NCBI GenBank assembly: GCA_017472735.1
Contig: JAFUOD010000002.1
Location: 68,226-132,225, forward strand
Length of the DNA: 64,000 bases
Reading direction: 5' to 3'
DNA from: Oscillospiraceae bacterium
GTDB taxonomy: Bacteria > Bacillota > Clostridia > Oscillospirales > Ruminococcaceae
Each line of letters starts with the position of its first letter. The stretch's first letter is position 1. Below are positions 11,252-48,000 of this stretch, one piece after another. A model generated the notes under the pieces. That model ran no database searches. It worked only from the letters and a program-made list of their open reading frames with translations, and was not told the DNA's origin. Position numbers and translations under genes: made by a program.

Positions 11252-11269
11252 AGTTAGCGTTTGCTAACT
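11252..11269. promoter_or_regulatory. Candidate DtxR-family operator (site 2, upstream of the feoA operon)
   Basis: AGTTAGC-GTTT-GCTAACT palindrome about 55 nt upstream of the first feoA. Confidence 0.55.
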
Positions 11270-11348
11270 AATAGTATAATACATCATTCGAGGCTTGAAA
11301 GTCAACGAAAAAACCGTTAAAAAAGCAATTTTGTATGAATGACGATAT

Positions 11349-11364
11349 GTTAGCCTAAGCTAAC
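11349..11364. promoter_or_regulatory. Candidate DtxR-family operator (site 3, divergent feoA/regulator region)
   Basis: GTTAGC-CTAA-GCTAAC, the exact reverse complement of the site 1 core. Confidence 0.55.
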
Positions 11365-11497
11365 TGAACTTTTTGTTCACTTTGCATACAAACCGGGGGC
11401 AAGCAGATTTTTTATAGATAATATATTTCTTTTGCGCTTGAAAAATGTGCAAATTTGTGTTATTCTTATTAAAACAAAACTTTAAGGAGGATTTACC

Positions 11498-11863
11498 GTG
11501 GGATTGCAGGAATCGGGCGAGATGTATTTAGAAACTATATATATTCTTTCTAAAAAGCTTGGCGGCGTGCGTGCGATTGATGTTTCGGAGCATATGGGAT
11601 ATTCTAAGCCCAGTGTAAGCCGTGCTGTGGGAATCCTTAAAAAAGGCGGCTACTTAATTACCGATAATGACGGATACCTTGTCCTTACGGATGAGGGAAG
11701 GAAAATTGCCGAAAAGACTTATGAACGTCACAGCGTTTTGCTTGATCTGTTCAGAAGGATCGGTGTAAGCGAGCAAACAGCGGCAGACGATGCCTGCAAG
11801 ATCGAGCACGATATTTCGGACGAAACCTTTGAAGCGATTAAAAAATTCGTTAAGAATATGTAA
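11498..11863 (+). CDS. DtxR/MntR-family metal-dependent transcriptional repressor (short form, no SH3 domain)
   Basis: ESGEMYLETIYIL..RAIDVSEHMGYSKPSVSRAVGILKKGGYL winged helix plus a dimerisation helix. GTG start after a GGAGG RBS. Confidence 0.85.
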   Translation: MGLQESGEMYLETIYILSKKLGGVRAIDVSEHMGYSKPSVSRAVGILKKGGYLITDNDGYLVLTDEGRKIAEKTYERHSVLLDLFRRIGVSEQTAADDACKIEHDISDETFEAIKKFVKNM

Positions 11864-11867
11864 AAAC

Positions 11868-11901
11868 CAACCCACGCTTGAAAAATCGAGTGTGGGTTTT
11901 T
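11868..11901. terminator. Hairpin shared by the convergent regulator gene and small-protein operon
   Basis: AACCCAC/GTGGGTT 7-bp stem with flanking A-run and T-run. The loop is long, so this is weak. Confidence 0.45.
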
Positions 11902-12253
11902 ATATCAGCAAATATCCAAGTGCTAAAATAAGCTTAATGTCAGCATTGTTTTTGTAAAGAATAAACAGCAGGATAAGAATAAGCAGTTTTTCCGAGTCGA
12001 TGTTTGAACTGCCCGAAAAAAGCGAGCTTATTATATCGTTTTGCTTATGAATGGGCGGTGGGTTGTGATGCTGTTGTTTGTGCTGAGGCTTTGGTGCGGC
12101 GCTCGGCGCCGAGGTCGGGGCAGCGGCTTGGTCAGGCTCGGGCGGCGCATTTTGTTCAAACACAAGGCTTTTCGAGCGCTTTTGCATATCTCTCATGCGC
12201 TCCAAAGCCTCAAGCTGCATACGGCTAAAGCCCTGTTCATCATAATAAGCCAA
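11900..12253 (-). CDS. Hypothetical protein: Pro/Gln-rich middle, hydrophobic C-terminus
   Basis: 117 aa ORF whose start overlaps the end of the upstream ORF by 14 nt. No family recognised. Confidence 0.5.
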   Translation of the reverse strand: MAYYDEQGFSRMQLEALERMRDMQKRSKSLVFEQNAPPEPDQAAAPTSAPSAAPKPQHKQQHHNPPPIHKQNDIISSLFSGSSNIDSEKLLILILLFILYKNNADIKLILALGYLLI

Positions 12254-12620
12254 GCAAATCGCCTCCCGAATCTAAAAGTCCGCTTTCTTTAATAACAGGC
12301 CAAAGGTTTAAAAGCTTTATAAGCTTAATTGCCTTGTCAACGCGTTCGTGCTTTTCCTCGGCTAAAAGAGGCTTAAGCGCGCACAAAAAGTTAATGTTTT
12401 CGTCGTCCTTCGAGCATTCTTTAAACTTTGATAAAAGTCCCATTACCGTAACGATATCAAAGGGCATATCACTTGGCGATGGGTTAGCAGGCAGTTGGGG
12501 CGTTTCGGGCAAAGCAGGTGCTTCGCCCGTAAGCCCAAGCATGGAAGCAAGCTCTGAGAGCTGCTTTAAGCTTTGCTCGTCGGACAGTATCTCCGATATT
12601 TTTGAAGCTATGTCTTCCAT
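12240..12620 (-). CDS. Hypothetical protein (126 aa)
   Basis: ORF in an operon with its neighbours. Acidic N-terminal helix, Pro-rich linker, C-terminal LKPLLAEEKHERVDKAIKLIKL segment. No family recognised. Confidence 0.5.
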   Translation of the reverse strand: MEDIASKISEILSDEQSLKQLSELASMLGLTGEAPALPETPQLPANPSPSDMPFDIVTVMGLLSKFKECSKDDENINFLCALKPLLAEEKHERVDKAIKLIKLLNLWPVIKESGLLDSGGDLLGLL

Positions 12621-12645
12621 ACAGGTCCTCCGTTAAAATGTGCGT

Positions 12646-12882
12646 TTAGCCGAACAGCTTTTTCATAAGCTCCTTTGCCTGAGGGCTTGAAAGAATCGCA
12701 TTTGCGGTTACGGGGTTCGATAATGCTTTTGTCAGCTTTTGTGCGTCTGCTTGTGGCAGGGTTGAAAGCAAACGGTCGAAGGTGCCGTTTTTAAGCTCGG
12801 TTTTAAGCTGTGCTTCTGTTACGCCAAGCTTTTGAGATGCCGATTTTATAAGTGCCTCTTGCTGTGATTGCGATAAGTTCAT
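12646..12882 (-). CDS. Hypothetical small helical protein (78 aa)
   Basis: First ORF of the three-gene minus-strand cluster; GGAG-type RBS upstream. No family recognised. Confidence 0.5.
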   Translation of the reverse strand: MNLSQSQQEALIKSASQKLGVTEAQLKTELKNGTFDRLLSTLPQADAQKLTKALSNPVTANAILSSPQAKELMKKLFG

Positions 12883-12958
12883 AAGTGAGTCTCCTTGTAT
12901 TGAAATGTTTGAAAATATATGCTAAAATAAAAGAAATATTTGTGCGGAGGTAAAACGC

Positions 12959-13435
12959 TTGAAGATCGTTGCATTTTCCGATTCTCACCGCCGAAGCGAC
13001 AGGGTGGATAAGCTTTTTGAAAAAACTAATCTTTATACCGACTTATATATCTTCACGGGTGACGGACTTGATGATGTTGAAAATATGTTTTATATTTACC
13101 CCGATAAGAAGATTCTGTGCGTTTCGGGCAACTGCGATATTGCGGCAACCGAACCTTATGTGAGAGAGGTTGAGTGCTGCGGCAAAAAGGTTGTTTTTAC
13201 GCATGGGCACATGCAGCACGCAAAGTTTGGCATGGGCGGGCTTAAAAACCTCGCAAAGCAAACGGGTGCCGATGTTGTTATATTCGGCCACACCCACGAA
13301 AAAGTATGCAAATATGAAGACGGGATATATTACATCAACCCGGGCAGTCTCGGCATTCCTCATGACGGAACGCCTGCCTATGCCGTTATTGATATATCCG
13401 AAAAGGGCGTTTTGTGTTCGCACGTCGCTCTGTAA
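12959..13435 (+). CDS. YfcE/MJ0936-family metallophosphoesterase
   Basis: FSDSH..GDG..GNCD..THGH..GHTH motif series. TTG start after a GGAGG RBS. Confidence 0.8.
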   Translation: MKIVAFSDSHRRSDRVDKLFEKTNLYTDLYIFTGDGLDDVENMFYIYPDKKILCVSGNCDIAATEPYVREVECCGKKVVFTHGHMQHAKFGMGGLKNLAKQTGADVVIFGHTHEKVCKYEDGIYYINPGSLGIPHDGTPAYAVIDISEKGVLCSHVAL

Positions 13436-13506
13436 CAGTATATGATGCTATAAAGCTGAAGTTGCAGCTTTTGCAAAATAAATAAGAAAAAAGGAAGTAA
13501 TGACTG

Positions 13507-14229
13507 ATGTTAGAGCAGCTTAAAAAAGAAGTTTATGAAGCAAATATGCTTTTGCCCAAATATGGGCTTATCACATTTACATGGGGTAATGTTTCGGGCA
13601 TAGACCGTGAAAAGGGGCTTATCGTTATCAAGCCCTCGGGCGTTGAATATGACGTTATGAAGCCCGAGGATATGGTTGTTGTTGACCTTGAAGGCAACGT
13701 TGTTGAGGGCGATCTGAACCCCTCGAGCGACACCCCCACACATATCGAATTTTATAAGGCATTTCCAAATATCGGCGGCGTGACCCACACGCACTCCACT
13801 TTTGCTACCTCGTTTGCACAGGCAGGCTGCGGCATTTTGCCTCTTGGCACAACACACGGCGACTATTTCTATGGCAAAATTCCCTGCACCAGAAAAATGA
13901 AACCCGAAGAAATTGCAACCGAATATGAAAAGAACACAGGCCTTGTTATTGTTGAAACCTTTAAGAAGGAAAGAATCGACCCCGACGCTATTCCTGCAGT
14001 TCTTGTTCATTCTCACGGACCTTTCACATGGGGCAAAGATGCCGTTGATTCGGTTCATCACTCGGTTATTTTAGAGGAATGTGCTAAGATGGCGCTTTAT
14101 GCAAATTTGATAAAGACTTCTACATACGAAAACCGTGTGCCGCCGATGCAGCAGGAGCTTTTGGATAAGCACTATTTGCGTAAGCACGGTGCAAACGCTT
14201 ATTACGGCCAAAGCCGCCCCAAGAAGTGA
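13507..14229 (+). CDS. araD: L-ribulose-5-phosphate 4-epimerase
   Basis: [49 protein letters not shown] is a class II aldolase/AraD signature. Confidence 0.85.
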
Positions 14230-14267
14230 TAATAAGGTCAAATAATCAAGTCGGTTTACAAAAATTA

Positions 14268-14298
14268 AGCTCTCTCCAATGCAGGAGGGAGCTTTTTT
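14268..14298 (+). terminator. Rho-independent terminator of araD
   Basis: GCTCTCTCC/GGAGGGAGC stem (one mismatch) followed by TTTTTT. Confidence 0.7.
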
Positions 14299-14424
14299 GC
14301 GCGCCGACGTCGCGCGGTGCGCCTAAGCGAAGCGAGGGCTGTACGCGCGGTGGAGGCGCCGCCGGCCGCCGTTCCTCGCCGCTGCGCTTCGCGCAGCGCT
14401 CGGCTTCGCCGTCAGACGGCACCG
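14299..14424. repeat. GC-rich hairpin-mosaic intergenic element, copy B
   Basis: Contains modules CGCCGACGTCG (14302-14312), AGCGAAGCGAG (14326-14336), CGGTGGAGGCGC (14348-14359) and GCCGTC-A-GACGGCAC (14408-14422), plus hairpin CTGCGC-TTC-GCGCAG. Confidence 0.8.
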
Positions 14425-34693: not shown

Positions 34694-36016
34694 ATGGCTT
34701 TATCTCTCCATGGGGCACATGTGCCTCACAGAAAAAACACTGCAAATATGCCGGCTGTAAGAATTGACACCCCCAAATCTGTCAACATTCCCGTATTAAT
34801 GCACATCGGCAAGCCGTCGAGTCCTGTTGTAAAGGCAGGCGACCATGTCGATGTCGGCACCTTGATTGCCAAGCAGGAGGGTACGATTTCTGTTGATATT
34901 CATTCAAGCGTTTCGGGCACCGTGAAAAAGATTGACGAGACTCTTCTTTCAAACGGCTCGACCTGCAAGCTTATTGTCATTGAATCTGACGGCGAGATGA
35001 GAGTTGACGCAAATATTGCGCCTCCGTCAATCAACAGTAAAGACGAGCTTATCGAAGCTATCCGCGCAAGCGGTATTGTAGGTTTGGGCGGTGCAGGCTT
35101 CCCCACACACGTTAAGTTTAATGTTGACCCCTCACGAATTGAGGAGCTTATTATAAACGGCGCAGAGTGCGAGCCTTACATCACCAGCGACACCCGCACA
35201 ATGATCGACCGCGCAGACGACATGGCATATGCTATAGGTTTGTTTAAAAAGTTTTTAGGCGTTAAAAAGATAATCATCGGCATTGAAAACAACAAGCCCG
35301 AGGCTATTGAAAGCATGAAAAAGCTTGCCGAAAACGATTCCGAAATAACCGTAAGCGTTCTTCCCGCAATTTATCCTCAGGGCGGCGAAAAGGTCATGAT
35401 CTATCACACAACAGGCAAGATCGTGCCTTTGGGCAAGCTGCCCATTGATGTCGGCTGCATTGTGACAAACTGCACAACGGTTGCCGATATCGGCAGATAT
35501 GCAAAAACCGGTATGCCCTTGGTTGAAAAGTGCATAACCGTTGACGGCAGTGCTGTTAACGAGCCTAAGAATGTTATCGTCCCTGTGGGAACCTCGATGG
35601 AGGACGTATTCAACTTTTGCGGAGGTTTTAAGAGCGAGCCGCACAAAGTGTTCTACGGCGGACCTATGATGGGCGTTACCGTACCCGATATAGGACAGCC
35701 GATTCTTAAAAACACAAATGCCGTTATTGCTTTTAACGAGAAGGATTCGAAACTTGCTGAGTCCGAGGCTTGCATAAGATGCGGAAAGTGCATTAACATC
35801 TGCCCGTTTGGCATAAATCCCCCTGCTATTGAAAGAGCACTGCGTGAAAAAGACCCCGAAAGAATGATAAAGTATGGCGCAAGCGCCTGCATGGAATGTG
35901 GCTGCTGTTCATATGTTTGCCCTGCAAACCGTCCCTTGGTTCAGCGAAACAGACTTGCTAAAGGCGAAATTAAAGAACATTATGCCAGACAGGCAGCAAA
36001 GGAGGCGAAAAAATAA
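34694..36016 (+). CDS. rnfC: Rnf complex subunit C
   Basis: GLGGAGFPTHVK NADH/FMN site and two C-terminal CxxCxxCxxxCP clusters. The ATG at 34694 is preferred over the AT-rich upstream extension of the track ORF. Confidence 0.9.
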   Translation: MALSLHGAHVPHRKNTANMPAVRIDTPKSVNIPVLMHIGKPSSPVVKAGDHVDVGTLIAKQEGTISVDIHSSVSGTVKKIDETLLSNGSTCKLIVIESDGEMRVDANIAPPSINSKDELIEAIRASGIVGLGGAGFPTHVKFNVDPSRIEELIINGAECEPYITSDTRTMIDRADDMAYAIGLFKKFLGVKKIIIGIENNKPEAIESMKKLAENDSEITVSVLPAIYPQGGEKVMIYHTTGKIVPLGKLPIDVGCIVTNCTTVADIGRYAKTGMPLVEKCITVDGSAVNEPKNVIVPVGTSMEDVFNFCGGFKSEPHKVFYGGPMMGVTVPDIGQPILKNTNAVIAFNEKDSKLAESEACIRCGKCINICPFGINPPAIERALREKDPERMIKYGASACMECGCCSYVCPANRPLVQRNRLAKGEIKEHYARQAAKEAKK

Positions 36017-36936
36017 TGGCATCTAAGTTACGTCTTTCTGTATCACCTCATGTTCACACCCACGAAACCGTTACGGGAATTATGCTTGATGTCATCATTT
36101 CGCTTCTTCCCGCAACAATTGCAGGTACGATAATCTTCGGCTGGCGCGCATTGCTTGTTGTTGCAGCGTGTGTTATCACCTGCGTGCTTTCGGAATTTAT
36201 TTTTAACAAAATTGTAAAAGAAAAGCCCACCATCGGCGATCTGAGCGCTGCTGTTACAGGCTTGCTTTTGGGACTTAACCTTCCTGCAAACATTCCTATT
36301 TGGCAGGCAGTCATCGGTTCGGTATTTGCAATAATTATTGTCAAATGCTTCTTTGGAGGAATGGGCTGTAACCTTGTTAACCCCGCAATTACCGCGCGTG
36401 TATTCATGCTTGTTGCCTTTGGTTCAATGGCAACTGCCGCATTCCCTGTTGACGCTGTTTCATCTGCAACCCCTTTGTCTGCCGAGCAAATGCCTTCGTT
36501 AACCACCCTCTTTTTCGGCAACTACGGAGGCGCAATCGGTGAGACATGCACATTGGCGCTTATTATCGGATTTATTTATCTTTTAGTGCGTCAGGTAATT
36601 ACTTGGCATATCCCCGTGGCTTACATCGGCACAGTTTTCCTCTTTACCCTGGTTTTAGAGGGATTTGACTTCGTCGCCGCACTTTCTGCCATCATGGCAG
36701 GCGGCTTGTTCATAGGTGCTATCTTCATGGCTACCGACTATGTTACATCTCCCGAAACCCCTAACGGAAAGCTTATTTTCGGCTTGGGCGCCGGTATTAT
36801 AACTGTAATGATACGTCAGTGGGGCAACTACCCCGAGGGTGTATCCTTCGCAATTTTGCTTATGAACATTCTTGACCCCTACATTGGCATCTGGACAGCA
36901 AGAAAGGTGTTTGGAGGTGTTAAGGCTGATGATTAA
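36016..36936 (+). CDS. rnfD: Rnf complex subunit D
   Basis: NqrB/RnfD polytopic protein; SSATPL flavinylation-type motif (VDAVSSATPLS). Confidence 0.9.
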   Translation: MASKLRLSVSPHVHTHETVTGIMLDVIISLLPATIAGTIIFGWRALLVVAACVITCVLSEFIFNKIVKEKPTIGDLSAAVTGLLLGLNLPANIPIWQAVIGSVFAIIIVKCFFGGMGCNLVNPAITARVFMLVAFGSMATAAFPVDAVSSATPLSAEQMPSLTTLFFGNYGGAIGETCTLALIIGFIYLLVRQVITWHIPVAYIGTVFLFTLVLEGFDFVAALSAIMAGGLFIGAIFMATDYVTSPETPNGKLIFGLGAGIITVMIRQWGNYPEGVSFAILLMNILDPYIGIWTARKVFGGVKADD

Positions 36937-38104
36937 GATGATGAAAAGTGCGGTTGCTTTAACCGTTATCTGCGCTGTTGTTGCAGTGCTTTTGGCGGCA
37001 ACAAACTTTATTACCGCTCCTGTTATTCAGGCTAACGATGCCGCCGCCGCAAACGAAGCTTTGCTTGTTGTAATGCCCAATGGCACGGGCTTTGAAGCTG
37101 TTGACATTTCCTCTTACACATTGCCCTCAACTGTTAACGAGGTATTTAAGGAAGCAAACGGCGGTTATGTAGTAAAACTTACCACTGCGGGCTATTCAAC
37201 AGGCATGGTTATCATGGTCGGCGTTGATGCAAACGGTGCTGTTACAGGCGCTACCTGCTTATCAAGCGGTGAAACCTTGGGCTATGAAAAAACCTACGGC
37301 GAGACAACCGTTGGCGCAACACTTGAAACCGTTGACGGCTTGGACACCATTGCAGGCGCAACAAGAACCACCGATGGCTATAAAAACGCTGTGAAAGACG
37401 CTTTGAACACCGCAGTTATAATGGGCGGTGGAAGCGTTGACATAAGAAATCCCGAACAGATTTTGACTGATAACTTAAATACGGCATTGCCCGAGGGTGA
37501 GGGCGAGTTCACTTCGTTCTTCATTCAAGAAGTTCTTGACGTCACTGACGCTGTATATCACGCTGATAACGATGCAGGTTACGTATTTGTTTCGGGCGAA
37601 AGCTTTATTGGTGTTGACCGTTCCGGTAACGTAATATCTGAAGTAGAAGAAGCCCTTAAGGTTTCGATTGAAAGCGATGCCAAGACGTTCTTAGCGTCCG
37701 AGGTTGAGATGATCGACCTCTCGGCATACGAGAATATACCCTCTCAGATAGTTAATGCTTACAGAACCCTTACAGGCAACTATGTATTCGAGCTTAAGGC
37801 AGCAGGCTATGGCATTAACGGCGGCGATAAGTATCACCCCGCATCGGGCGAGTATATCGAGATCATGGTTTCGGCAACCAAGGAAGGTGTGATCATCGAC
37901 TGTGTTACCACCTATCAGGCTGAAACCGAAAACATCGGCTCGGTTTGTGCAGACCCCGAATTCTACTCTCAGTTCGACGGCAGAAGCGAATCGGATTATA
38001 ACGACATCGACGCTATAAGCGGTGCAACACTTACAACAAACGGTTATAAGGTTGCAGTCGGCAAGATATTTGACGTAATAAAAATTTTGGAAGGAGTGGC
38101 CTGA
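36929..38104 (+). CDS. rnfG: Rnf complex subunit G with two tandem FMN-binding domains
   Basis: N-terminal TM anchor. First FMN_bind motif IAGATRTTDGYKNAV (nt 37352-37369). A second complete domain ends in ISGATLTTNGYKVAV (nt 38018-38035). Confidence 0.8.
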   Translation: MIKMMKSAVALTVICAVVAVLLAATNFITAPVIQANDAAAANEALLVVMPNGTGFEAVDISSYTLPSTVNEVFKEANGGYVVKLTTAGYSTGMVIMVGVDANGAVTGATCLSSGETLGYEKTYGETTVGATLETVDGLDTIAGATRTTDGYKNAVKDALNTAVIMGGGSVDIRNPEQILTDNLNTALPEGEGEFTSFFIQEVLDVTDAVYHADNDAGYVFVSGESFIGVDRSGNVISEVEEALKVSIESDAKTFLASEVEMIDLSAYENIPSQIVNAYRTLTGNYVFELKAAGYGINGGDKYHPASGEYIEIMVSATKEGVIIDCVTTYQAETENIGSVCADPEFYSQFDGRSESDYNDIDAISGATLTTNGYKVAVGKIFDVIKILEGVA

Positions 38105-38107
38105 TTT

Positions 38108-38827
38108 ATGAAAAAAGACAGTAGCTTGTCAATACTTTTCAAGGGCTTGCTCCTTGAAAACCCTGTATTCGTTCTTATTTTGGGCACTTGCCCCACGCTT
38201 GCAACAACAAACACCGTTATCGGTGCGCTGGCAATGGGTCTTGCCGCAACTGCGGTTTTGATCTGCTCTAACGTGGTTATCTCGCTGTTAAGAAAGGTGA
38301 TACCCGAAACGGTAAGAATCCCTTGCTATATCGTAATTATTGCAGGCTTTGTAACCATTGTTCAAATGTTTATGCACGCATACCTGCCCGAGCTTTATGA
38401 GCTTTTGGGCGTGTATCTGGCGCTTATCACAGTTAACTGCATTATTTTGGGCAGAGCTGAAATGTTTGCTTCCAAAAACAACGTCGGCAAGTCGGCGCTC
38501 GACGGCGTGGGCATGGGCCTTGGCTTTACCATTGCGCTTTTGGCAATGGCAACCATTCGTGAGGTTTTTGGTGCAGGCACATTTGCAGGTATCGAGATCC
38601 CGTTCCTTATCGACCACACCGTAAATTATCTTACAAAGGCGCCCGGCGGTATGCTTGTTTACGGCATTTTAATTGCTGTTGTTTCAGTTATTACCAAAGG
38701 CAAATATCCTAAGAAAAAGAGCTTTGGCTGTGCAGGCTGTCCTTCGGCAGGCTTGTGCAAATCCTGCTCCTCTTGCGAAAACAATATTGAAGAAGCAGTA
38801 GATAACATTTTAAAGGAGGGCAACTAA
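38108..38827 (+). CDS. rnfE: Rnf complex subunit E with a C-terminal Cys-rich extension
   Basis: NqrD/RnfE core (LGTCPTLA..NCIILGRAE) plus the tail KKKSFGCAGCPSAGLCKSCSSCENN. Confidence 0.9.
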   Translation: MKKDSSLSILFKGLLLENPVFVLILGTCPTLATTNTVIGALAMGLAATAVLICSNVVISLLRKVIPETVRIPCYIVIIAGFVTIVQMFMHAYLPELYELLGVYLALITVNCIILGRAEMFASKNNVGKSALDGVGMGLGFTIALLAMATIREVFGAGTFAGIEIPFLIDHTVNYLTKAPGGMLVYGILIAVVSVITKGKYPKKKSFGCAGCPSAGLCKSCSSCENNIEEAVDNILKEGN

Positions 38828-39427
38828 ATGGAAACTGTTAAGAGTTTAATTGTCATTTTAATGTCCTCGGTGCTTGTTAATAACTATGTTTTAAGCCAGT
38901 TCTTAGGCATCTGCCCCTTCTTGGGCGTTTCCAAAAAGCTTGATCAGGCAACAGGCATGGGCGTTGCCGTAACCTTTGTAATGTTAATGGCAACCGCCGT
39001 AACATGGCCTATTCAGACCTATATTTTAAATAATACAGGTTTAGAATATATGCAAACTATCGTCTTTATTTTGGTTATTGCGGCACTTGTTCAGTTTACC
39101 GAAATTTTCTTAAAAAAGTATATTCCTGCACTTCACAAAAGCTTGGGTGTATATCTTCCTCTTATAACAACCAACTGCGCTGTTTTGGGCGTTACCATTA
39201 ACAACATGACCGACGGCTACGGCTTTGTTGAATCGCTCGTAAGCTCTTTGGGCTGTGGCTTGGGCTTTTTGCTTGCAATGGTTCTGTTCTCGGGTATCCG
39301 TTCAAGAATCGATGAAATGAACATTCCCAAGGCTTTGCGCGGCTTGCCCGTAACCTTAATTGCGGCTTCATTCCTTTCTTTGGCGTTCTTCGGATTCGCA
39401 GGAATCATTGATAACTTGTTTGCTTAA
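38828..39427 (+). CDS. rnfA: Rnf complex subunit A
   Basis: NqrE/RnfA pattern LGICPFLGVS..ITTNCAVLGV. Confidence 0.9.
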   Translation: METVKSLIVILMSSVLVNNYVLSQFLGICPFLGVSKKLDQATGMGVAVTFVMLMATAVTWPIQTYILNNTGLEYMQTIVFILVIAALVQFTEIFLKKYIPALHKSLGVYLPLITTNCAVLGVTINNMTDGYGFVESLVSSLGCGLGFLLAMVLFSGIRSRIDEMNIPKALRGLPVTLIAASFLSLAFFGFAGIIDNLFA

Positions 39428-39442
39428 GGAGGGTATAAGAGT

Positions 39443-40267
39443 ATGTTTGATATTTTAATTGCCCTTTTGGTTGTCGGCGCTGTCGGCTTGGTTGCAGGTA
39501 TTTTGCTTGTTTTGGCATCTTACTTCTTCAGAATTGAGGAAGAAGAAAAAACAAAGCTCATTCGTGAATGTCTGCCCGGCTCGAACTGCGGTGCTTGCGG
39601 ATATACAGGCTGTGACGGTTATGCAAAAGCCTTGGCATTGGGCGAGGCTGAGCCTCACCTTTGTGTGCCGGGCGCAATTGCCGTTGCCGAAAAGCTTTCA
39701 GAGATTTTGGGTGTAGAGGTTAAGGCAAGCGACCCGATAGTTGCCTTTGTCGGCTGCAACGGCACCTGCGAAGCTACCTCGAAAAAAGCGGATTACGACG
39801 GCATTGATTCTTGTTTAGCTGCTTCAATGCTTTATGGCGGACCTAATGCCTGCCGCTTTGGCTGCATTGGTTGCGGCGACTGTTCAAAAGTCTGTCCTGT
39901 TGACGCTATCTGCTTCGAGGACGGTATCGCCCGTGTTGACTCACGCATATGCATCGGTTGCGGCATGTGCGCTAAGGAATGTCCCAAGAACATTATCGCA
40001 ATCATTCCCCGTGACGCAAGAGTTGCTGTTATGTGCAACTCGAACGACAAGGGCGCTGTTGCACGCAAAAACTGCAAAAACGCTTGTATCGGCTGCAAAA
40101 AGTGCGAGGTCAATTGCCCAACAAATGCAATCACTGTTATTGATAATCTCTCGGTTATTGATTACGGCAAGTGCATTGCCTGCGGCAAGTGTGCCGAGGT
40201 TTGCCCCACACACTGCATTAAACTTACCGACTTTGCCGCACACAGCATAATTGATTATGGAAAATAA
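39443..40267 (+). CDS. rnfB: Rnf complex subunit B
   Basis: N-terminal TM, CLPGSNCGACGYTGC cluster, and multiple CxxCxxCxxxCP ferredoxin repeats. Confidence 0.9.
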   Translation: MFDILIALLVVGAVGLVAGILLVLASYFFRIEEEEKTKLIRECLPGSNCGACGYTGCDGYAKALALGEAEPHLCVPGAIAVAEKLSEILGVEVKASDPIVAFVGCNGTCEATSKKADYDGIDSCLAASMLYGGPNACRFGCIGCGDCSKVCPVDAICFEDGIARVDSRICIGCGMCAKECPKNIIAIIPRDARVAVMCNSNDKGAVARKNCKNACIGCKKCEVNCPTNAITVIDNLSVIDYGKCIACGKCAEVCPTHCIKLTDFAAHSIIDYGK

Positions 40268-40634
40268 TAAACGAAAATTTAAAAACGACTTAATTCTTGT
40301 CGCCGCCCTGCTTGTTTTGGCGGCGGCAGGATTTATGTTATTCAATGCCTTTAAACAGGCAGGCGATTACGTTGTCGTTTCCGTTAACGGCGAGGAGGTT
40401 GCCCGTTACCCTCTTGACAAAGATTTTGAAACCGATATAATTACCCAAGATGGGGTTAACACCTTGACTGTTAAAGAGGGAAAAGCTTATGTTTCTTACG
40501 CTTCCTGCCCCGATTTGATATGTGTCGGTCACCGCGCCGTTTCAAACGTTGGTGAAACGATTGTTTGCCTGCCGAATAAAGTTGTAATAAGCATTGAAAA
40601 ACAAGAAAACAACGATTTAGACCTTGCGGTTTGA
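40257..40634 (+). CDS. NusG domain II-containing membrane-anchored protein
   Basis: TM anchor, then YVVVSVNGEEVARYPL..CPDLICV..IVCLPNKVVISIE, the NusG-II/DUF1312 pattern. Confidence 0.7.
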   Translation: MENNKRKFKNDLILVAALLVLAAAGFMLFNAFKQAGDYVVVSVNGEEVARYPLDKDFETDIITQDGVNTLTVKEGKAYVSYASCPDLICVGHRAVSNVGETIVCLPNKVVISIEKQENNDLDLAV

Positions 40635-40648
40635 CGGAGAAAGATTTA

Positions 40649-41152
40649 ATGAACAACCGAACCAAAAAAATTGCATATTTAGGTTTGATGACGGCATTAG
40701 CGCTCATCCTGTCTTATGTCGAATCGCTGTTTCCGCCGATATGGGCGGCTGTGCCCGGCATTAAAATGGGCTTGCCCAATATTGTTATAATATTTTTGCT
40801 TTACCGCTTTGGGTTTAAAGAGGCACTCGGGGTCTCACTGGTACGAGTGTTTATAGTCTCACTTTTGTTCGGCAACGTAATGTCCTTGGCTTACAGCTTA
40901 ACAGGTGCGGCATTAAGCCTTGCGCTTATGGTCGTTCTTAAAAGGACAGACCTTTTTTCGACAGTCGGCGTAAGCGTTGCCGGCGGTGTTGCTCATAACT
41001 TGGGGCAAATTATTGTTGCTATGCTTATAATGGAAACCGCAGAAATCGGGTATTATATGATTGTGCTTGCTGTGACGGGAACCTTGGCAGGTGCATTTAT
41101 TGGTCTGGCAGGCTCAATTTTACTGAAATACATGAAAAATGTGAAAATATGA
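40649..41152 (+). CDS. Gx transporter family membrane protein (formerly annotated as heptaprenyl diphosphate synthase component I-like)
   Basis: About 5 TM helices, LALILSYVESLFP..PGIKMGLPNIVIIFLLY. GGAGA RBS precedes the ATG at 40649. Confidence 0.65.
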   Translation: MNNRTKKIAYLGLMTALALILSYVESLFPPIWAAVPGIKMGLPNIVIIFLLYRFGFKEALGVSLVRVFIVSLLFGNVMSLAYSLTGAALSLALMVVLKRTDLFSTVGVSVAGGVAHNLGQIIVAMLIMETAEIGYYMIVLAVTGTLAGAFIGLAGSILLKYMKNVKI

Positions 41153-41263
41153 AATGAAAAAAGTTTGTTAAATACTTGACAAGACTATTGACCTATGGCA
41201 TAATTAACACAATTAATAAATGTAATAAGTTTATTAAAATTTTTTAATAAGGAGAATAGTAAT

Positions 41264-42289
41264 ATGAAAAAGTTGTTAAGCATTGTTTTAGCCGTTGTTA
41301 TGACTGCTGTTTTGTTTGCAGGCTGCGGCGCTGCAAAGACTGTTAAGTTTGGTGTGGGTGTTTATTCTTACTATGAAGCCGGCACAAACGCTACCGAAGA
41401 AGCTGAAGGCACAGGCGAAGTGGTTTCGACTGCAGCTGCTGTTATGTTAGACGCTGACGGCAAGATCGTTAAGTGCGTTATCGACACGGTTGATTACACA
41501 GCTCACTGGACTTTGGCAGGCGAAGATATCACTTATGAAAACGACGAAGATATCAAGACCAAGTACGAACTCGGCACCAACTACGGCATGGCCGCTTACG
41601 GCAACGACGTTAACGGCGACGGCAAGGTCTTGGAATGGAATGAACAGATCGACGCTTTCTGCTCTGTAGTTGAAGGCAAGACCATTGACGAAGTTAAAGC
41701 TTTGGTAGTAGACGGTTATCAGGGAAACGAAGAGGTTATGAATGCCGGCTGTACCATTGGCATTGCAGATTATGTTAAGGCTTTGGAAAAGGCTGTTGCA
41801 AACGTTCAAGATTCGGGTGCTACTGCTAACGACACCTTGAAGCTTGCATTTGTTTCGACTGACGAAGGCAAGGGCGCAACCGAAGAAGCTGACGGCAGCG
41901 TTGAATTGGAAGTTACTATCGTTGGTGCGGCTGTTAATGCCGACGGCAAGGTTTCGGCAATGGTTACCGATGCTGTTCAGGCCGCATTCGGCTTCAACAC
42001 TGTAGGCGCTGCAACTTATGATGCCGCTGCTGAGATCAAGACCAAGCTTGAAAAGGGTGACAGCTATAATATGGCTGCTTACGGCACCGACCTTAACGGT
42101 GACGGCAAGGTTTTGGAATGGTATGATCAGGCTGCTGCGTTTAATGCTGAATGCTTGGGCAAGACCGCAAGCGAGATCTCGGCACTTGTTGTTGACGGTT
42201 ACGGCGTTGAATCCTTGCAGACCGCAGGCTGCACCATCGGTATCTCCGATATGGTAAAGGCTGCTGTTAAGGCTGCAACTGTTGCTTAA
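41264..42289 (+). CDS. Lipoprotein with two internal repeats of an FMN_bind-like module (uncharacterised)
   Basis: Lipobox LFAGC. Repeat 1 is about aa 27-180 and repeat 2 about aa 192-341. Each ends ..NGDGKVLEW..VVDGY....AGCTIGI.D.VKA..KA. Confidence 0.5.
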   Translation: MKKLLSIVLAVVMTAVLFAGCGAAKTVKFGVGVYSYYEAGTNATEEAEGTGEVVSTAAAVMLDADGKIVKCVIDTVDYTAHWTLAGEDITYENDEDIKTKYELGTNYGMAAYGNDVNGDGKVLEWNEQIDAFCSVVEGKTIDEVKALVVDGYQGNEEVMNAGCTIGIADYVKALEKAVANVQDSGATANDTLKLAFVSTDEGKGATEEADGSVELEVTIVGAAVNADGKVSAMVTDAVQAAFGFNTVGAATYDAAAEIKTKLEKGDSYNMAAYGTDLNGDGKVLEWYDQAAAFNAECLGKTASEISALVVDGYGVESLQTAGCTIGISDMVKAAVKAATVA

Positions 42290-42361
42290 TTTAAGCTGAC
42301 AAATTTAAGGGATGCCGTGTTTTGCGGCATCCCTTTTATGCTTTTGCAGGAGGGAAGAGGC

Positions 42362-43414
42362 ATGAAAAAAATAATTTTGCTTGTTTTGGCATTTGCTTTG
42401 TTAATGGCTCTTTGCGCCTGCACAAAAGGGGACGAGCCGCAAAAATTCACGGCATATTATTTTGATTATTTCGATACGGCTACCACGATCGTCGGTTATG
42501 AAAACAGCCAAGAGGATTTTGACGAGGTTTGTGCCAAAATAACCTCGCTGTTAAATGAATACCACAAGCTATACACGATCTATAACAGATATGATGGGTT
42601 GAACAATCTGTGCGAGGTCAATCGAAGCGAGAATACCCCCTTGGTGGTTGATGAAAAGATTATCGACCTGATTTTATATGCCAAGGAAATGTATTATGAA
42701 ACCGATGGCATGATGAATGTTGCCATGGGAAGCGTGCTTTCCATATGGCATGACTACCGTCAAAGAGGGTTAAATCACCCGGACGAAGCTGCCCTCCCCC
42801 CAATAGACGAGCTTTTGGAAGCGGCTAAGCACGTAAATATTGATGACGTTGTTGTTGATGCCGAAAACAGAACGGTGTATCTTGCAGACCCCGAAATGAG
42901 CCTTGACGTTGGTGCGATTGCTAAAGGTTATGCTGTTGAGGCCGTTGCCAAAGAGCTTGAAGCCGACGGAATTACAGGCTACATTTTAAACGTCGGCGGA
43001 AACGTGCGAACCATCGGCACAAGAGGGGATGGCACCCCATGGCAGGTGGGCATTGAGAACCCCGATACTTCGGACGGGGATAAGCCATATATCGAGTATT
43101 TGAAGCTTTCGGGGCAGTCGCTTGTTACAAGCGGCTCTTACCAGCGTTACTATGTTGTCGATGGCGTGAATTATCACCACATCATCGACCCCGAAACGCT
43201 TATGCCGGGCGAAAAGTACCTTTCGGTTTCGGTTTTGTGCCTCGATTCGGGGCTTGCCGATGCGCTTTCGACGGCGCTCTTCAACATGGATCATGCTGAC
43301 GGATTGGCATTGGTTGAAAGGCTTGAAAATGTTGAAGCTATGTGGGTAATGCCAAACGGCGAGCAAAGATATTCCTCGGGCTTTGAAAAGTATACGTTTG
43401 AATATAAAGAGTAA
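42362..43414 (+). CDS. apbE: FAD:protein FMN transferase (ApbE) lipoprotein
   Basis: Lipobox LMALCAC; DVGAIAKGYA and HHIIDPETLMP ApbE motifs. GGAGGG RBS precedes the ATG at 42362. Confidence 0.85.
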   Translation: MKKIILLVLAFALLMALCACTKGDEPQKFTAYYFDYFDTATTIVGYENSQEDFDEVCAKITSLLNEYHKLYTIYNRYDGLNNLCEVNRSENTPLVVDEKIIDLILYAKEMYYETDGMMNVAMGSVLSIWHDYRQRGLNHPDEAALPPIDELLEAAKHVNIDDVVVDAENRTVYLADPEMSLDVGAIAKGYAVEAVAKELEADGITGYILNVGGNVRTIGTRGDGTPWQVGIENPDTSDGDKPYIEYLKLSGQSLVTSGSYQRYYVVDGVNYHHIIDPETLMPGEKYLSVSVLCLDSGLADALSTALFNMDHADGLALVERLENVEAMWVMPNGEQRYSSGFEKYTFEYKE

Positions 43415-43419
43415 AGAAT

Positions 43420-43450
43420 AAACCACCTGTGTTTGATACAGGTGGTTTTA
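43420..43450. terminator. Bidirectional Rho-independent terminator
   Basis: AAACCACCTGT/ACAGGTGGTTT 11-bp stem between convergent genes. Confidence 0.8.
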
Positions 43451-45258: not shown

Positions 45259-48000
45259 ATGATAAAAAGAGTGTTATCATTAATTTTAGCAGTTGTAATC
45301 GGTTTGTCAACCCTTTGTGCCTGCGCCCGGCACGAGGATGTCAAGAAGGACGATGTTCCTTCGGTAACATCTTCACCCGAACAAACCGAGGGCGAGGTTA
45401 CTTCGACTACTCAGGCGACTGCGACCGAAGAAACTACGACCGAAGCGACAACTACGCCCGAGGTTACAACGACCGAAGAAACCACAACAGCTGCAACCAC
45501 TACGACCGAGGCGGCTACTACCGAAGCTACGACTACGACAGTTACAACAACGACCGAGGCAACCACAACAACTGTCACCACCACTACTGAAGCCACAACG
45601 ACCACAGCCGCACCCAAGCCTGTTGAGCTTGGCGTTTTGGGCTATGATTTAAGCGAAAAGGTCTCGACCGATAAATCTCTTGCTAAGGGTAAGGTAACAA
45701 GCCTTGTTATTAACGAGGTCTGCCCGTCGAACAAAAACACTCTTGACGATAAAGACGGCGAATCAAAGGATTGGATCGAAATCTATAATCCTACCGACAG
45801 CGTTATCAATCTTGAGGGCGTTGGACTTTCGGATGATAAAAACGACCCGTTCAAGTGGACTTTCCCGAGCGTAAACATTCAAGCAAAGGGCTATATTATT
45901 GTATTCGCTTCCGATAAAGATATTAAGACCCCCGAGCTTCACACAAATTATAAGATTTCGGGTGGAAACGAAGAAATCGTTCTTACCTCATCCGACGGTA
46001 AGACCATCGATTCATTCATCATTTCTGCTACTGAAGAAGACCAGACCTATGGCAGATATCCCGATGGAAGCGATGGGTTGAGACTTCTCAGCGCAACTCC
46101 GGGCAAGTCGAATGACAAAGCCAAGGAGGTTGTCGAAGCAGGAACTCTTAAACCTCTGTTTTCTAACGAAAGCGGATTCTACAGCCAGCAGTTCAGCTTA
46201 AAAATCACCGCCGAACCGGGCTGCACAATTTATTACACCACGGATGGAAGCGTTCCCACGACAAAATCCAATAAATACACCCAGTCTATAACGATCAAGG
46301 ACCGTTCGAGCGACAAGGCGATTTTAACCTATAAACGTGATCTTACGGTTGCTGACGATTCGTTCTATCCTAACAAGGAATTTGAAAAGGCAACGATCAT
46401 TCGTGCAATTGCCGTTGATAAAAACGGTGTTGTCAGCGATGTTACTACTGCTACATATTTCGTAAGCTCGAGCATTGCAAATAAATATAAAGATGTTGAC
46501 CTTATCTCGGTAGTTATTGACCCCGATGACCTTTATGACCACGAAACAGGCATTTATGTTGCAGGTAAGGTGTTTGAGGATTGGCGTGCAGAGCACCCCA
46601 ACGATCCGCTTGACGGCAACTCTCAGGCAAACTTTAACCAGCGAGGAAGAGAATGGGAGCGTGACGCTCACATTGATTACTTCAGCTCAGCAAATCTCGA
46701 GTTCAGCTCTGATGTCGGCGTGAGAATTCACGGCGGCTGGTCGCGTAACAGCGCACAAAAGAGCCTTAGGTTCTACTTCCGCGACGAATATGGCGAAAGC
46801 AAGCTTGATTACGAGCTGTTTGAAGGCAATTATTCTGAAGATACAAACAAGAAAATTACTTCATATAAGCGTTTCCTTATCCGAAACGGCGGCAACGACT
46901 CGTATATTATGACCTTTAAAGACCCGTGGACACAGTCGCTGTTTAGCGAGTTCAATTTCGGCACACAGGCAACCAACCTTGTAATCTGCTTCCTCGACGG
47001 CGAATATTGGGGAGTCTATACGGCATGTGAATCACTTGACAAGCATTATGTCGAAGAAAAATACGGTGTGCCCGACGAAGACGTTGTTGTAATGAAGAAC
47101 AATTCTCTTGAAGACGGTGACGAACCCGGTGACGAAGAACTTTGGAATATAACCAGACGCTATATCCGTGACCACGACATGTCGAACCCCGACAATTACG
47201 CAAAGGCATGCGAAATGATGGATATGGATTCGTTTGCACAGTATATCGCTGCTGAAATTTATATCGGCAACGAGGACTGGATTTGGAACAATGCCGCATG
47301 GTGGCGTTCACGCTCGACCGATAAAGCAGACAGCCCTTATCAGGACGGTAAGTGGAGATTCTTGATGTTCGACGTTGAGTTTTCTATGAACCTTTACGGC
47401 AACGGCAAAGACGTTCAGTATGACATTTTAGATGATCTTCTTAGAAAAGATGGTTATTTCGGCCCCATTCTTTCTTCCCTCTTAAAGAACGATACATTCA
47501 AGCACAAGTTCGTTGTTGCATGTGAAGATGTTATGAACATCGCCTTCAACAAGAACTATGCCTCCAACAAGCTTAACTCTTACTTGCAGGAGTATTCGCC
47601 TTATCTTGAACAGCATTTTGACAGATATGTCGGCTGGCAATCGCTTAACGGCGTAAGAAATAATGTTGAGGACTGGAAGAAATGGGTTGCCAACAGGCAG
47701 AGCGCGTTCTTATCCATTCTTAAACAGGACCTTGGCATTGACGGTACAAACAACAAGGTCACTGTTGAATTAAGCGATACATCCGGAGGAATTGTCAGGG
47801 TGAACGGACACAAAGTACCCACAAGCGGCGGTTCGTGGAGCGGAACATATATGTCGGGATATAAAATCGTTATCGAGGCTGTTCCTGCAAAGGGCTATGA
47901 ATTCGTCGGCTGGTCGGGAAGCTATGACGGCGATGCAGCATCAATTACGGTTAATCCAGCAAAGGCATTGACCCTGAAAGCAAACTTTAAAAAGAAGTAG
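45259..48000 (+). CDS. CotH kinase-family surface lipoprotein with a Thr-rich stalk, lamin-tail (LTD) domain and C-terminal Listeria-Bacteroides-type repeat
   Basis: Lipobox LSTLCAC. LTD motif VINEVCPSN..DWIEIYNP. CotH core RIHGGWSR..LRNGGND. C-terminal GYEFVGWSGSY. Confidence 0.8.
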   Translation: MIKRVLSLILAVVIGLSTLCACARHEDVKKDDVPSVTSSPEQTEGEVTSTTQATATEETTTEATTTPEVTTTEETTTAATTTTEAATTEATTTTVTTTTEATTTTVTTTTEATTTTAAPKPVELGVLGYDLSEKVSTDKSLAKGKVTSLVINEVCPSNKNTLDDKDGESKDWIEIYNPTDSVINLEGVGLSDDKNDPFKWTFPSVNIQAKGYIIVFASDKDIKTPELHTNYKISGGNEEIVLTSSDGKTIDSFIISATEEDQTYGRYPDGSDGLRLLSATPGKSNDKAKEVVEAGTLKPLFSNESGFYSQQFSLKITAEPGCTIYYTTDGSVPTTKSNKYTQSITIKDRSSDKAILTYKRDLTVADDSFYPNKEFEKATIIRAIAVDKNGVVSDVTTATYFVSSSIANKYKDVDLISVVIDPDDLYDHETGIYVAGKVFEDWRAEHPNDPLDGNSQANFNQRGREWERDAHIDYFSSANLEFSSDVGVRIHGGWSRNSAQKSLRFYFRDEYGESKLDYELFEGNYSEDTNKKITSYKRFLIRNGGNDSYIMTFKDPWTQSLFSEFNFGTQATNLVICFLDGEYWGVYTACESLDKHYVEEKYGVPDEDVVVMKNNSLEDGDEPGDEELWNITRRYIRDHDMSNPDNYAKACEMMDMDSFAQYIAAEIYIGNEDWIWNNAAWWRSRSTDKADSPYQDGKWRFLMFDVEFSMNLYGNGKDVQYDILDDLLRKDGYFGPILSSLLKNDTFKHKFVVACEDVMNIAFNKNYASNKLNSYLQEYSPYLEQHFDRYVGWQSLNGVRNNVEDWKKWVANRQSAFLSILKQDLGIDGTNNKVTVELSDTSGGIVRVNGHKVPTSGGSWSGTYMSGYKIVIEAVPAKGYEFVGWSGSYDGDAASITVNPAKALTLKANFKKK
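45400..45609 (+). repeat. Low-complexity Thr/Glu/Ala-rich coding repeats inside the CotH-family gene
   Basis: Translated TTTEATTT(P/T)(E/V)VTTTE-type units repeated about 8 times. The nucleotide units are imperfect. Confidence 0.8.

Follow-up and report, generated by a model that had tools for sequence, protein, structure and literature searches.

A 64,000-nucleotide stretch of contig JAFUOD010000002.1 from a gut-metagenome Oscillospiraceae bacterium (the window) carries four genes on the + strand directly after an rnfCDGEAB operon, at the positions given for them in a preliminary description of this DNA. They encode a membrane-anchored NusG_II protein (EetA), a Gx transporter family protein (EetB), a 341-residue lipoprotein and the flavin transferase ApbE. 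The explanation that we favor, with moderate confidence, is that these genes form an extracytosolic flavinylation module on Rnf, in which the lipoprotein would be a doubly flavinylated, PplA-like carrier wired to RnfG. Here, the sequence evidence indicates that the lipoprotein probably carries two covalent flavins, and analogy with known carriers suggests that it probably moves electrons outside the cell. The most speculative parts of this scheme are the connection to Rnf and the direction in which electrons flow.

Relationship of the lipoprotein to the FMN_bind superfamily

Direct sequence searches with the 341-residue lipoprotein gave no Pfam, NCBIfam or PDB sequence match. The two halves of the protein are 50% identical over 130 residues (expectation value (E) of 3e-35), and the tandem duplication reported in the preliminary description is borne out, as is the presence in each half of A-G-C-T (residues 161-164 and 321-324), in which the Thr of flavinylation motifs is retained and a Cys lies adjacent to it. 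Proteins of the wider family are built of two, four or six such domains, each of about 155 residues, and the hidden Markov model (HMM) of the domain has 157 positions. AlphaFold modeling of the full-length lipoprotein (a pLDDT, or predicted score in the local distance difference test, of 92; predicted template-modeling score (pTM) 0.87) and of the N-terminal domain alone (pLDDT 94.8) predicts for each domain three strands of 11-16 residues followed by six helices.

A profile of the close clade matched one PDB chain, 2kzx_A, at E 0.05. With A5, a deliberately diverse single-domain alignment of 33 sequences at 25-46% identity, the same chain was matched at E 1e-8, and GYKMVEYG..AEWHEQ..DAISGATIKV of 2KZX was placed on the family signature Y-G-M...E-W-Y-E-Q...A-G-C-T-I-x-V. 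The 69-residue stretch of 2KZX in this alignment itself matches Pfam FMN_bind at E 1.7e-5 and passes the gathering score; a search with this fragment returned only three proteins and was of no use as a bridge. 2KZX is the nuclear magnetic resonance structure of a 131-residue uncharacterised protein that shares the signature G-Y-x-M-x-x-Y-G...E-W-x-E-Q...S-G-A-T-I-x-V with the family, but differs from the window lipoprotein in being a single domain with a canonical D-A-I-S-G-A-T. It is grouped with 3O6U and 8P2B ('FMN4 domain 1'), which are other single FMN_bind proteins.

For a direct comparison of profiles by hhalign, 547 repeat domains from family proteins were reduced to 349 at <70% identity, and the target consisted of 141 FMN_bind domains from the RnfG genes of related loci. 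The two profiles aligned with a probability of 87.9% and an E of 3e-6 over 74 columns, with AGCT positioned exactly at SGAT, GKT paired with GKT, and T-K-x-E-L-G-x-x-Y-G-M facing the E-T-x-G region. Controls in which either profile was reversed gave a probability of 0.2%. The homologous region is the C-terminal part of the RnfG and NqrC domain, in which the acceptor Thr also precedes the last helix. RnfG and NqrC are, like the lipoprotein, extracytosolic, and they are ApbE substrates, as the lipoprotein is predicted to be; by contrast, they are transmembrane-anchored complex subunits with a compact domain of about 120 residues, whereas the window protein is a lipoprotein in its own right, and its domains are extended.

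Individual members lead to the same superfamily. One repeat of P0264 matches Pfam FMN_bind (E 2.8e-4, profile positions 4-76), and P0252 is a lipoprotein in which three canonical FMN_bind domains are fused to a two-repeat module. When 130 diverse members were scanned one by one, FMN_bind was found in 5, at least one of them such a fusion, and no Pfam family was common to the set. The profile evidence is of homology to FMN_bind at the level of the superfamily, not of Pfam-level membership, and on this evidence the repeat is a divergent branch of the FMN_bind superfamily (PF04205). The FMN_bind-like shape of the segment that ends each half was therefore correctly recognized in the preliminary description; the suggestion of a new class of ApbE substrate gives way to such a divergent branch, which is probably FMN-bind2.

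Huang, Meheust, Barquera and Light (mSystems 2024, PMC11334425) distinguish two FMN-bind subtypes, a compact FMN-bind1 and a rarer FMN-bind2. The latter is described there from AlphaFold models as a domain of about 160 residues that occurs in even copy numbers, with extended β-sheet faces predicted to pair into a pseudo-symmetric unit that holds a pair of flavinylation sites; the subtype was detected by BLAST, and the example given, NTW96865.1, has no InterPro entry. The lipoprotein family agrees with FMN-bind2 in its domains of about 160 residues, its even copy number, its want of an InterPro or Pfam entry, its long β1-β3 strands and an insertion between β3 and helix 1; in the two-domain model of the window protein, which by the pTM given above is confident as a whole, the domains may pack as one unit. 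The family is probably FMN-bind2, as judged from the published description. PMC11334425 reports no experiment on FMN-bind2, and its searched text makes no mention of AGCT or ASVT variants, near-obligate apbE adjacency or Rnf linkage.

Conservation of the predicted acceptor motif

The acceptor segments of the window lipoprotein read V-M-N-A-G-C-T and L-Q-T-A-G-C-T. Both keep the acceptor Thr and the Gly at -2 of the flavinylation motif, and both depart from the canonical D-x-x-[S/T]-G-A-[S/T] in having Cys at -1, Ala at -3 and a residue other than Asp at -6. Neither the Cys nor the Thr of A-G-C-T varies in either half when 45 or 65 homologues are aligned. Across the 349 non-redundant repeat domains, the acceptor position is occupied by Thr in 336 and by Ser in 11 (347/349, 99%), position -1 by Cys (84%), Val (12%) or Ala (3%), and position -2 by Gly (77%) or Ser (14%). 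The common tetrapeptides are AGCT, ASVT, SSVT and SGCT, in which Gly pairs with Cys and Ser with Val. Outside the window clade, many domains read D-A-D-L-x-[A/S]-[G/S]-[C/V/A]-T, with Asp at -6 as in the canonical motif, and P0163 carries a fully canonical D-L-A-S-G-A-T. The most conserved residues of the family cluster round the FMN_bind motif region.

Mutagenesis described in a review of ApbE (PMC12052999) shows that Thr-to-Ala abolishes flavinylation and Asp-to-Ala has a minor effect, and that Gly-to-Ala or Ala-to-Val retain about 50% flavinylation. In the window itself, domain 1 of RnfG already has Ala at -3 (DTIAGAT) and RnfD has Ser at -2 (DAVSSAT), so that the cognate ApbE must already accept those deviations. 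On these grounds, AGCT without the Asp is a plausible candidate acceptor for ApbE.

The preliminary description had also raised the possibility of a redox-active protein combining a thiol with a flavin. This idea is weakened by the replacement of the Cys by Val or Ala in about 16% of the non-redundant domains, which makes thiol chemistry unlikely, and by its covariation with Gly or Ser at -2. The covarying residues at -2 and -1 look like packing rather than thiol or metal chemistry, and, as judged from these alignments, the motif Cys is unlikely to be catalytic.

Each half of the lipoprotein also contains a loop that is like the calcium-binding loops of dockerins or EF-hands, DVNGDGKV at residues 115-122 (41606-41629) and DLNGDGKV at residues 276-283 (42089-42112), and these DxNxDG loops match Pfam Dockerin_1 at E 0.014. 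Whole clades (e.g. P0030 and P0040) delete the loop, and it was set aside as a functional site and regarded as an optional insertion.

Distribution of the family and coupling to apbE

Family sequences number thousands in gut, bioreactor and fermentation metagenomes. A word-seeded search gave more than 1,626 clusters at 90% identity, all annotated 'hypothetical' and none with a precomputed Pfam domain, and an exhaustive HMM search gave 1,666 representatives at 50% identity, with 1,211 at E ≤1e-10 and 555 at E ≤1e-30. Gene context was analyzed in two sets of loci. The close set comprised 80 species-level loci from metagenome-assembled genomes (MAGs) of gut Oscillospirales (Oscillospiraceae and Acutalibacteraceae), among which the closest relative of the window lipoprotein, at 84% identity, is from Candidatus Faeciplasma. 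The distant set comprised 80 loci obtained from a metagenome scan with A6, a subgroup alignment distant from the window protein.

The order rnfCDGEAB-eetA-eetB-lipoprotein-apbE recurs in essentially all loci of the close set, so the gene arrangement is not due to chance. Moreover, apbE lies directly downstream of the lipoprotein gene in 73 of the 77 evaluable close loci and in 67 of the 71 evaluable distant loci, a synteny of about 94%; the co-occurrence with apbE on which the preliminary description had staked its proposal therefore extends well beyond the window. Given that RnfG and RnfD need apbE in any case, the loci without rnf constitute the independent evidence for this coupling. Within 6 kb of the 67 distant pairs, HMMs detected neither rnf nor eetAB in 35, eetAB in 18, rnf in 10 and both in 4. 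For example, apbE is the next gene downstream of P0121 (six repeats, ASVT), P0264 and P0125, with no rnf in the sequenced flanks. Other arrangements include P0163 and P0227, which stand within eetA-eetB-X-apbE blocks (X being the family lipoprotein), that of P0163 lying upstream of rnfC, and P0171 from a Sphaerochaetaceae MAG, in which the order is X-apbE-rnfCDGE. The core unit is the lipoprotein-apbE pair, because apbE adjoins the family gene in loci without rnf.

These distributions bear on the idea that the lipoprotein is a structural or assembly accessory of Rnf with no cofactor of its own, which might, for instance, stabilise or shield an enlarged extracellular RnfG. Strict synteny with rnfCDGEAB in the window clade, together with the doubled RnfG described below, would be expected of such an accessory, but the gene and apbE occur with no rnf nearby in 53 or more of the 71 distant loci that could be evaluated, other relatives occur in Ndh2/quinone-type loci, and the clustering of conserved residues round the FMN_bind motif region also counts against it. 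We consider an accessory of this kind very improbable.

Two Lachnospiraceae-type loci are of the Ndh2/quinone kind. In L118 (1413-8424), the genes encode a 683-residue Pyr_redox_2 protein (Ndh2-like, with a C-terminal extension), a polyprenyl synthase, a UbiA prenyltransferase, the lipoprotein, ApbE and EetB, and L157 (1432-7608) has the same order without EetB. Both halves of the L118 lipoprotein carry D-L-A-S-S-V-T, and the protein has the same sequence as WP_033164466.1 from the cultured Clostridium sp. KNHs205. By analogy with the Listeria-type electron-transfer locus, the family lipoprotein in L118 and L157 occupies the PplA slot.

Further neighbors were noted in the course of this analysis. 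A CoatF/ferritin-like (rubrerythrin-like) protein with no signal peptide is encoded on the same strand ahead of the lipoprotein-apbE pair in L141 (555-1616), L148 (4627-5211), L159 (4796-5332) and L170 (4218-5260), and an HxlR-type regulator is encoded still further upstream in two of them, L141 and L170; these neighbors hint at a redox or iron-stress regulon. In L085, a flavodiiron protein and a rubredoxin are encoded at 11265-12660, downstream of a four-repeat member and its apbE. Flavodiiron protein and rubredoxin serve in cytoplasmic O2/NO detoxification, and their link to the family gene may be coincidental or redox-related. The member P0291 from Anaerocolumna jejuensis DSM 15929 (WP_073279896.1) bears the UniProt name 'Major membrane immunogen, membrane-anchored lipoprotein'. 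The Treponema 15-kDa FMN_bind lipoprotein goes by this name too, and the UniProt name would therefore be an independent, automated hint of FMN_bind.

The EetA-EetB-ApbE module and the Rnf complex

The NusG_II, Gx and ApbE genes that follow rnfB correspond to an already published flavin-trafficking module, namely eetA-eetB-apbE on Rnf. EetB of Listeria monocytogenes, defined as PF07456, is an FAD (flavin adenine dinucleotide)-binding protein that resembles the S subunit of energy-coupling factor (ECF) transporters, and export of FAD for the ApbE homologue FmnB requires EetB together with FmnA and EcfA/A'; in Listeria without EetB, the PplA lipoprotein is unflavinylated (Rivera-Lugo et al., mBio 2023, PMC9973259). 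In the same study, PF07009 proteins are named EetA (Data Set S1), and eetB adjoins eetA in 3,328 genomes, apbE in 2,169 and Rnf genes in 572 Clostridia genomes (PMC9973259). The proposal of the preliminary description that the Gx transporter supplies flavin is thus supported by experiment on its Listeria counterpart; its view that no function is established for any of the accessory genes does not hold for the Gx protein, which is EetB. EetA is still without a phenotype.

The window proteins fit these assignments. The eetA product scored 108 bits against PF07009 (cut-off 29.6), has an N-terminal transmembrane segment and is encoded directly upstream of eetB, the 3' end of eetA overlapping the start of eetB by 4 nucleotides; its own start may be TTG 40251 or ATG 40257. 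The eetB product scored 127 bits against PF07456 (cut-off 30), and its gene adjoins eetA in the same module as apbE. ApbE scored 236 bits against PF02424, covering profile positions 2-266 of 266. Both ApbE (LCAC, after MKKIILL) and the 341-residue protein (LFAG-C21) carry lipoboxes. No gene for an ECF-T protein or an ABC ATPase (ECF-A) was found within the 64-kb window, and the energising module must therefore be encoded elsewhere. Such separate encoding is common for shared ECF modules.

The RnfG of the window is about twice the usual length, with about 388 residues and two FMN_bind domains that carry the motifs DTIAGAT and DAISGAT, and the long form was found in all 80 related genome loci. 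For other Clostridia in the mBio 2023 data set, RnfG has 180-202 residues (PMC9973259). A Sphaerochaetaceae relative (L089) has an RnfG of 649 residues (12419-14368). The long RnfG and the family lipoprotein are imperfectly correlated.

Among known systems, the closest comparison is with PplA of Listeria. Each is a surface lipoprotein with a tandem pair of flavin-acceptor domains (predicted as such in the window protein), and the gene of each lies next to apbE, eetA and eetB. PplA, however, is an FMN-bind domain protein whose flavinylation at two sites is proven, whereas the window lipoprotein has A-G-C-T and no Pfam match and its flavinylation is predicted from sequence; the membrane partner also differs, being Ndh2 with demethylmenaquinone for PplA and Rnf (ferredoxin/NADH) for the window lipoprotein. 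A precedent for the discovery of substrates by context is provided by DUF2271 and DUF3570, which were recognized as ApbE substrates through orphan apbE genes (Meheust et al. 2021, PMC8238504). Like these, the window lipoprotein is secreted, lacks annotation and has a conserved Thr motif, and its gene adjoins apbE; by contrast, the folds of DUF2271 and DUF3570 are unrelated, their motif is the canonical [S/T]GA[S/T] and they are biochemically verified.

Predicted expression signals within the module

The gap between eetB and the lipoprotein gene contains a σ70-like promoter pattern (41176-41204), and an AAGGAG ribosome-binding site lies between it and the lipoprotein start ATG 41264; the lipoprotein gene thus appears to have its own promoter. 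The hairpin and T tract that follow the lipoprotein gene are likely to be a terminator or attenuator holding ApbE below its substrate. A hairpin with a T tract occurs at the same position, with differing sequences, in at least 44 of 76 related loci, which suggests a conserved attenuation of apbE relative to the lipoprotein. The pattern of promoter and terminator, from which the operon structure is read, would fit an abundant substrate and a scarce enzyme. The apbE reading frame is open from GTG 42317, the listed start, which falls within the hairpin, and ATG 42362 is a further candidate (MKKIILL...LCAC lipobox). Given that the hairpin occupies 42307-42335, ATG 42362 is probably the real start of apbE.

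This pattern can also be read in another way, as that of a degenerate FMN_bind relative that is no longer flavinylated and that would handle flavins together with ApbE and EetB by non-covalent binding of FAD, FMN or riboflavin. Such a protein could capture and hand over exported FAD or could serve as a cell-surface flavin store. Its own promoter and the terminator before apbE suggest expression much higher than that of the enzyme, the window clade has lost much of the canonical motif (Asp is missing at -6, and Cys stands in place of Ala at -1), and the gene of this clade always lies between the FAD exporter gene and apbE, so that the apbE adjacency would be explained equally well. High substrate and low enzyme expression, however, also fits an abundant carrier. 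Moreover, the acceptor Thr or Ser is kept in 99% of domains while neighboring motif positions drift, some relatives have fully canonical motifs, and others occupy the PplA slot, where a flavinylated carrier is expected. We regard non-covalent flavin binding as unlikely, although it is the alternative to be taken most seriously.

Proposed mechanism and its assessment

In the mechanism that we favor, EetB would act with EetA and with an ECF energising module whose genes lie elsewhere to export FAD to the outer face of the membrane, as its homology to the Listeria protein suggests. ApbE would then attach FMN (flavin mononucleotide) derived from FAD to the Thr of RnfD (DAVSSAT) and of RnfG (DTIAGAT and DAISGAT), as expected from what is known of these families, and would also attach it to Thr164 and Thr324 of the lipoprotein, in whose domains the acceptor motif would have drifted from D-x-x-S-G-A-T to x-x-x-A-G-C-T. 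The doubly flavinylated lipoprotein would be a PplA-like, surface-tethered, two-flavin electron carrier, and, more speculatively, may be wired to the outward-facing flavins of the long two-domain RnfG and not to an Ndh2/quinone chain.

Several observations weigh against this reading. The window protein departs from the canonical motif in combining a non-Asp residue at -6 with Cys at -1, and a normal short RnfG accompanies some relatives, as in L088 (177 residues). The position of apbE beside rnf is already explained by flavinylation of RnfG and RnfD, and adjacency at the window is not independent evidence. The probable identity with FMN-bind2 comes from the published description, NTW96865.1 not being among the family cluster members that were looked up. 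The comparison with FMN_bind structures proposed in the preliminary description also failed to yield a match: Foldseek searches of the PDB with the full-length and single-domain models placed no FMN_bind entry, 2KZX included, in the top 50. The full two-domain model returned only noise (major histocompatibility complex-like platforms and porins, with template-modeling (TM) scores below 0.2), and the single domain returned nothing at E ≤1e-3, the top weak matches being IscU/ISCU2 at E 0.017-0.1 and TM-scores of 0.3-0.4. Finally, the conserved Thr or Ser could be merely a helix N-cap, as IscU has Cys-Ser at this position.

The last two points raise the question of a thiol or metal function on an IscU-like fold, in which the Cys at the N terminus of the last helix would bind a metal or an Fe-S cluster or would take part in thiol redox chemistry, perhaps in combination with a flavin. 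IscU and ISCU2 were the best Foldseek neighbors of the single domain, with a probability of up to 0.95. When the family profile was aligned by hhalign with E. coli IscU (a sequence that agrees with 2L4X), the probability was 21% and the E 1e-3, with the family Cys on Cys106, D52 on Asp39 and GKT.dE..A on GKSLDEAQA; in addition, the Rnf-linked clade shows no variation at Cys163 or Cys323. By contrast, each domain has one conserved Cys as compared with the three ligands of IscU, and the exchange of this Cys for Val or Ala in step with Gly or Ser at -2 has been described above. NifU_N was not matched by any of the 130 members scanned against Pfam, and the protein is extracytosolic and linked to apbE, not to isc or suf genes. 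A role as an Fe-S scaffold was rejected in view of the single, replaceable Cys, and a thiol or metal function in general seems to us remote. It may be that domains of the FMN_bind and NifU_N types have a fold in common in which the functional residue caps the N terminus of the last helix, and the likeness to IscU appears to be a resemblance at the level of the fold that gives no evidence for Fe-S chemistry.

Organization of the locus

The features of the module and of the preceding rnf operon are collected in Table 1. Further downstream, 45259-48000 encodes a 913-residue secreted or lipoprotein-like protein with a long Thr/Glu/Ala-rich linker (TTTEATTT repeats) near its N terminus.

Table 1. 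Features of the rnf operon and the adjoining module in the window
Feature	Coordinates	Strand	Basis or remarks
rnfCDGEAB operon	34694..40267	+	Open reading frames; Pfam/NCBIfam matches for RnfG and RnfB
rnfC	34694-36016	+	
rnfD	36016-36936	+	Acceptor site DAVSSAT (from translation)
rnfG	about 36929-38104	+	About 388 residues, two FMN_bind domains
rnfE	38108-38827	+	
rnfA	38828-39427	+	
rnfB	39443-40267	+	
eetA, membrane-anchored NusG_II (PF07009), 125-127 residues	40251..40634	+	Pfam E 4.2e-31
eetB, PF07456 (Hpre_diP_synt_I / 'Gx transporter'), ECF-S-like FAD export subunit by homology	40631..41152	+	Pfam E 6.1e-37
σ70-like promoter, TTGACA-17-CATAAT with upstream TG, eetB-lipoprotein gap	41176..41204	+	Consensus scan, pattern match only
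Lipoprotein, 341 residues, Cys21 lipidation site, two FMN_bind-related domains	41264..42289	+	
Lipoprotein N-terminal repeat domain, residues 25-185	41336..41818	+	Three long β-strands then six helices (model)
Predicted flavinylation site 1, A161-G-C-T164 (Thr164)	41744..41755	+	Profile alignment on SGAT of 2KZX and RnfG
Lipoprotein C-terminal repeat domain, residues 186-341	41819..42286	+	
Predicted flavinylation site 2, A321-G-C-T324 (Thr324)	42224..42235	+	G322, C323 and T324 invariant
Strong hairpin of 13 bp (7 GC) and T tract between lipoprotein gene and apbE	42307..42335	+	Sequence pattern
apbE, FAD:protein FMN transferase, lipoprotein	42362..43414	+	Pfam PF02424 E 8.9e-70; NCBIfam ApbE E 1e-34
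Bidirectional hairpin terminator closing the unit	43420..43448	.	Sequence pattern

Implications

ApbE-dependent flavinylation is coming to be seen as a major route of electron transfer outside bacterial cells. Surveys detect its substrates through the Pfam FMN_bind model and the [S/T]GA[S/T] motif, and the lipoprotein family is invisible to Pfam, NCBIfam and motif searches. If the family is flavinylated, flavinylated systems are undercounted in present censuses, and the recognition motif now accepted for ApbE is too narrow, in that Cys or Val at -1, Ala at -3 and the lack of Asp at -6 would have to be admitted; an A-G-C-T carrier would widen the known specificity of the enzyme. Besides Clostridium sp. 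KNHs205, cultured carriers of the family include Anaerocolumna jejuensis DSM 15929 and Ruminiclostridium sufflavum DSM 19573 (WP_110461809.1). With the flavin-trafficking module already published, the novelty that remains lies in the non-canonical acceptor motif, in the size and invisibility of the family, and in a possible Rnf-driven extracellular electron transfer.

The last of these is a tentative proposal, which we consider possible but doubtful: in the quinone-poor gut Oscillospirales, Rnf may double as a conduit of flavin-based extracellular electron transfer by way of the flavins of RnfG and the lipoprotein. Electrons would then pass to free flavins, iron, humics or oxygen, and the chain could also run in reverse and take electrons up. 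If this is true, the Rnf route would be a ferredoxin-driven, quinone-independent counterpart of the Ndh2/demethylmenaquinone/PplA pathway of Listeria, and the attachment of the module to Rnf in abundant gut Clostridia offers a testable candidate for the means by which quinone-lacking fermenters may exchange electrons with their surroundings.

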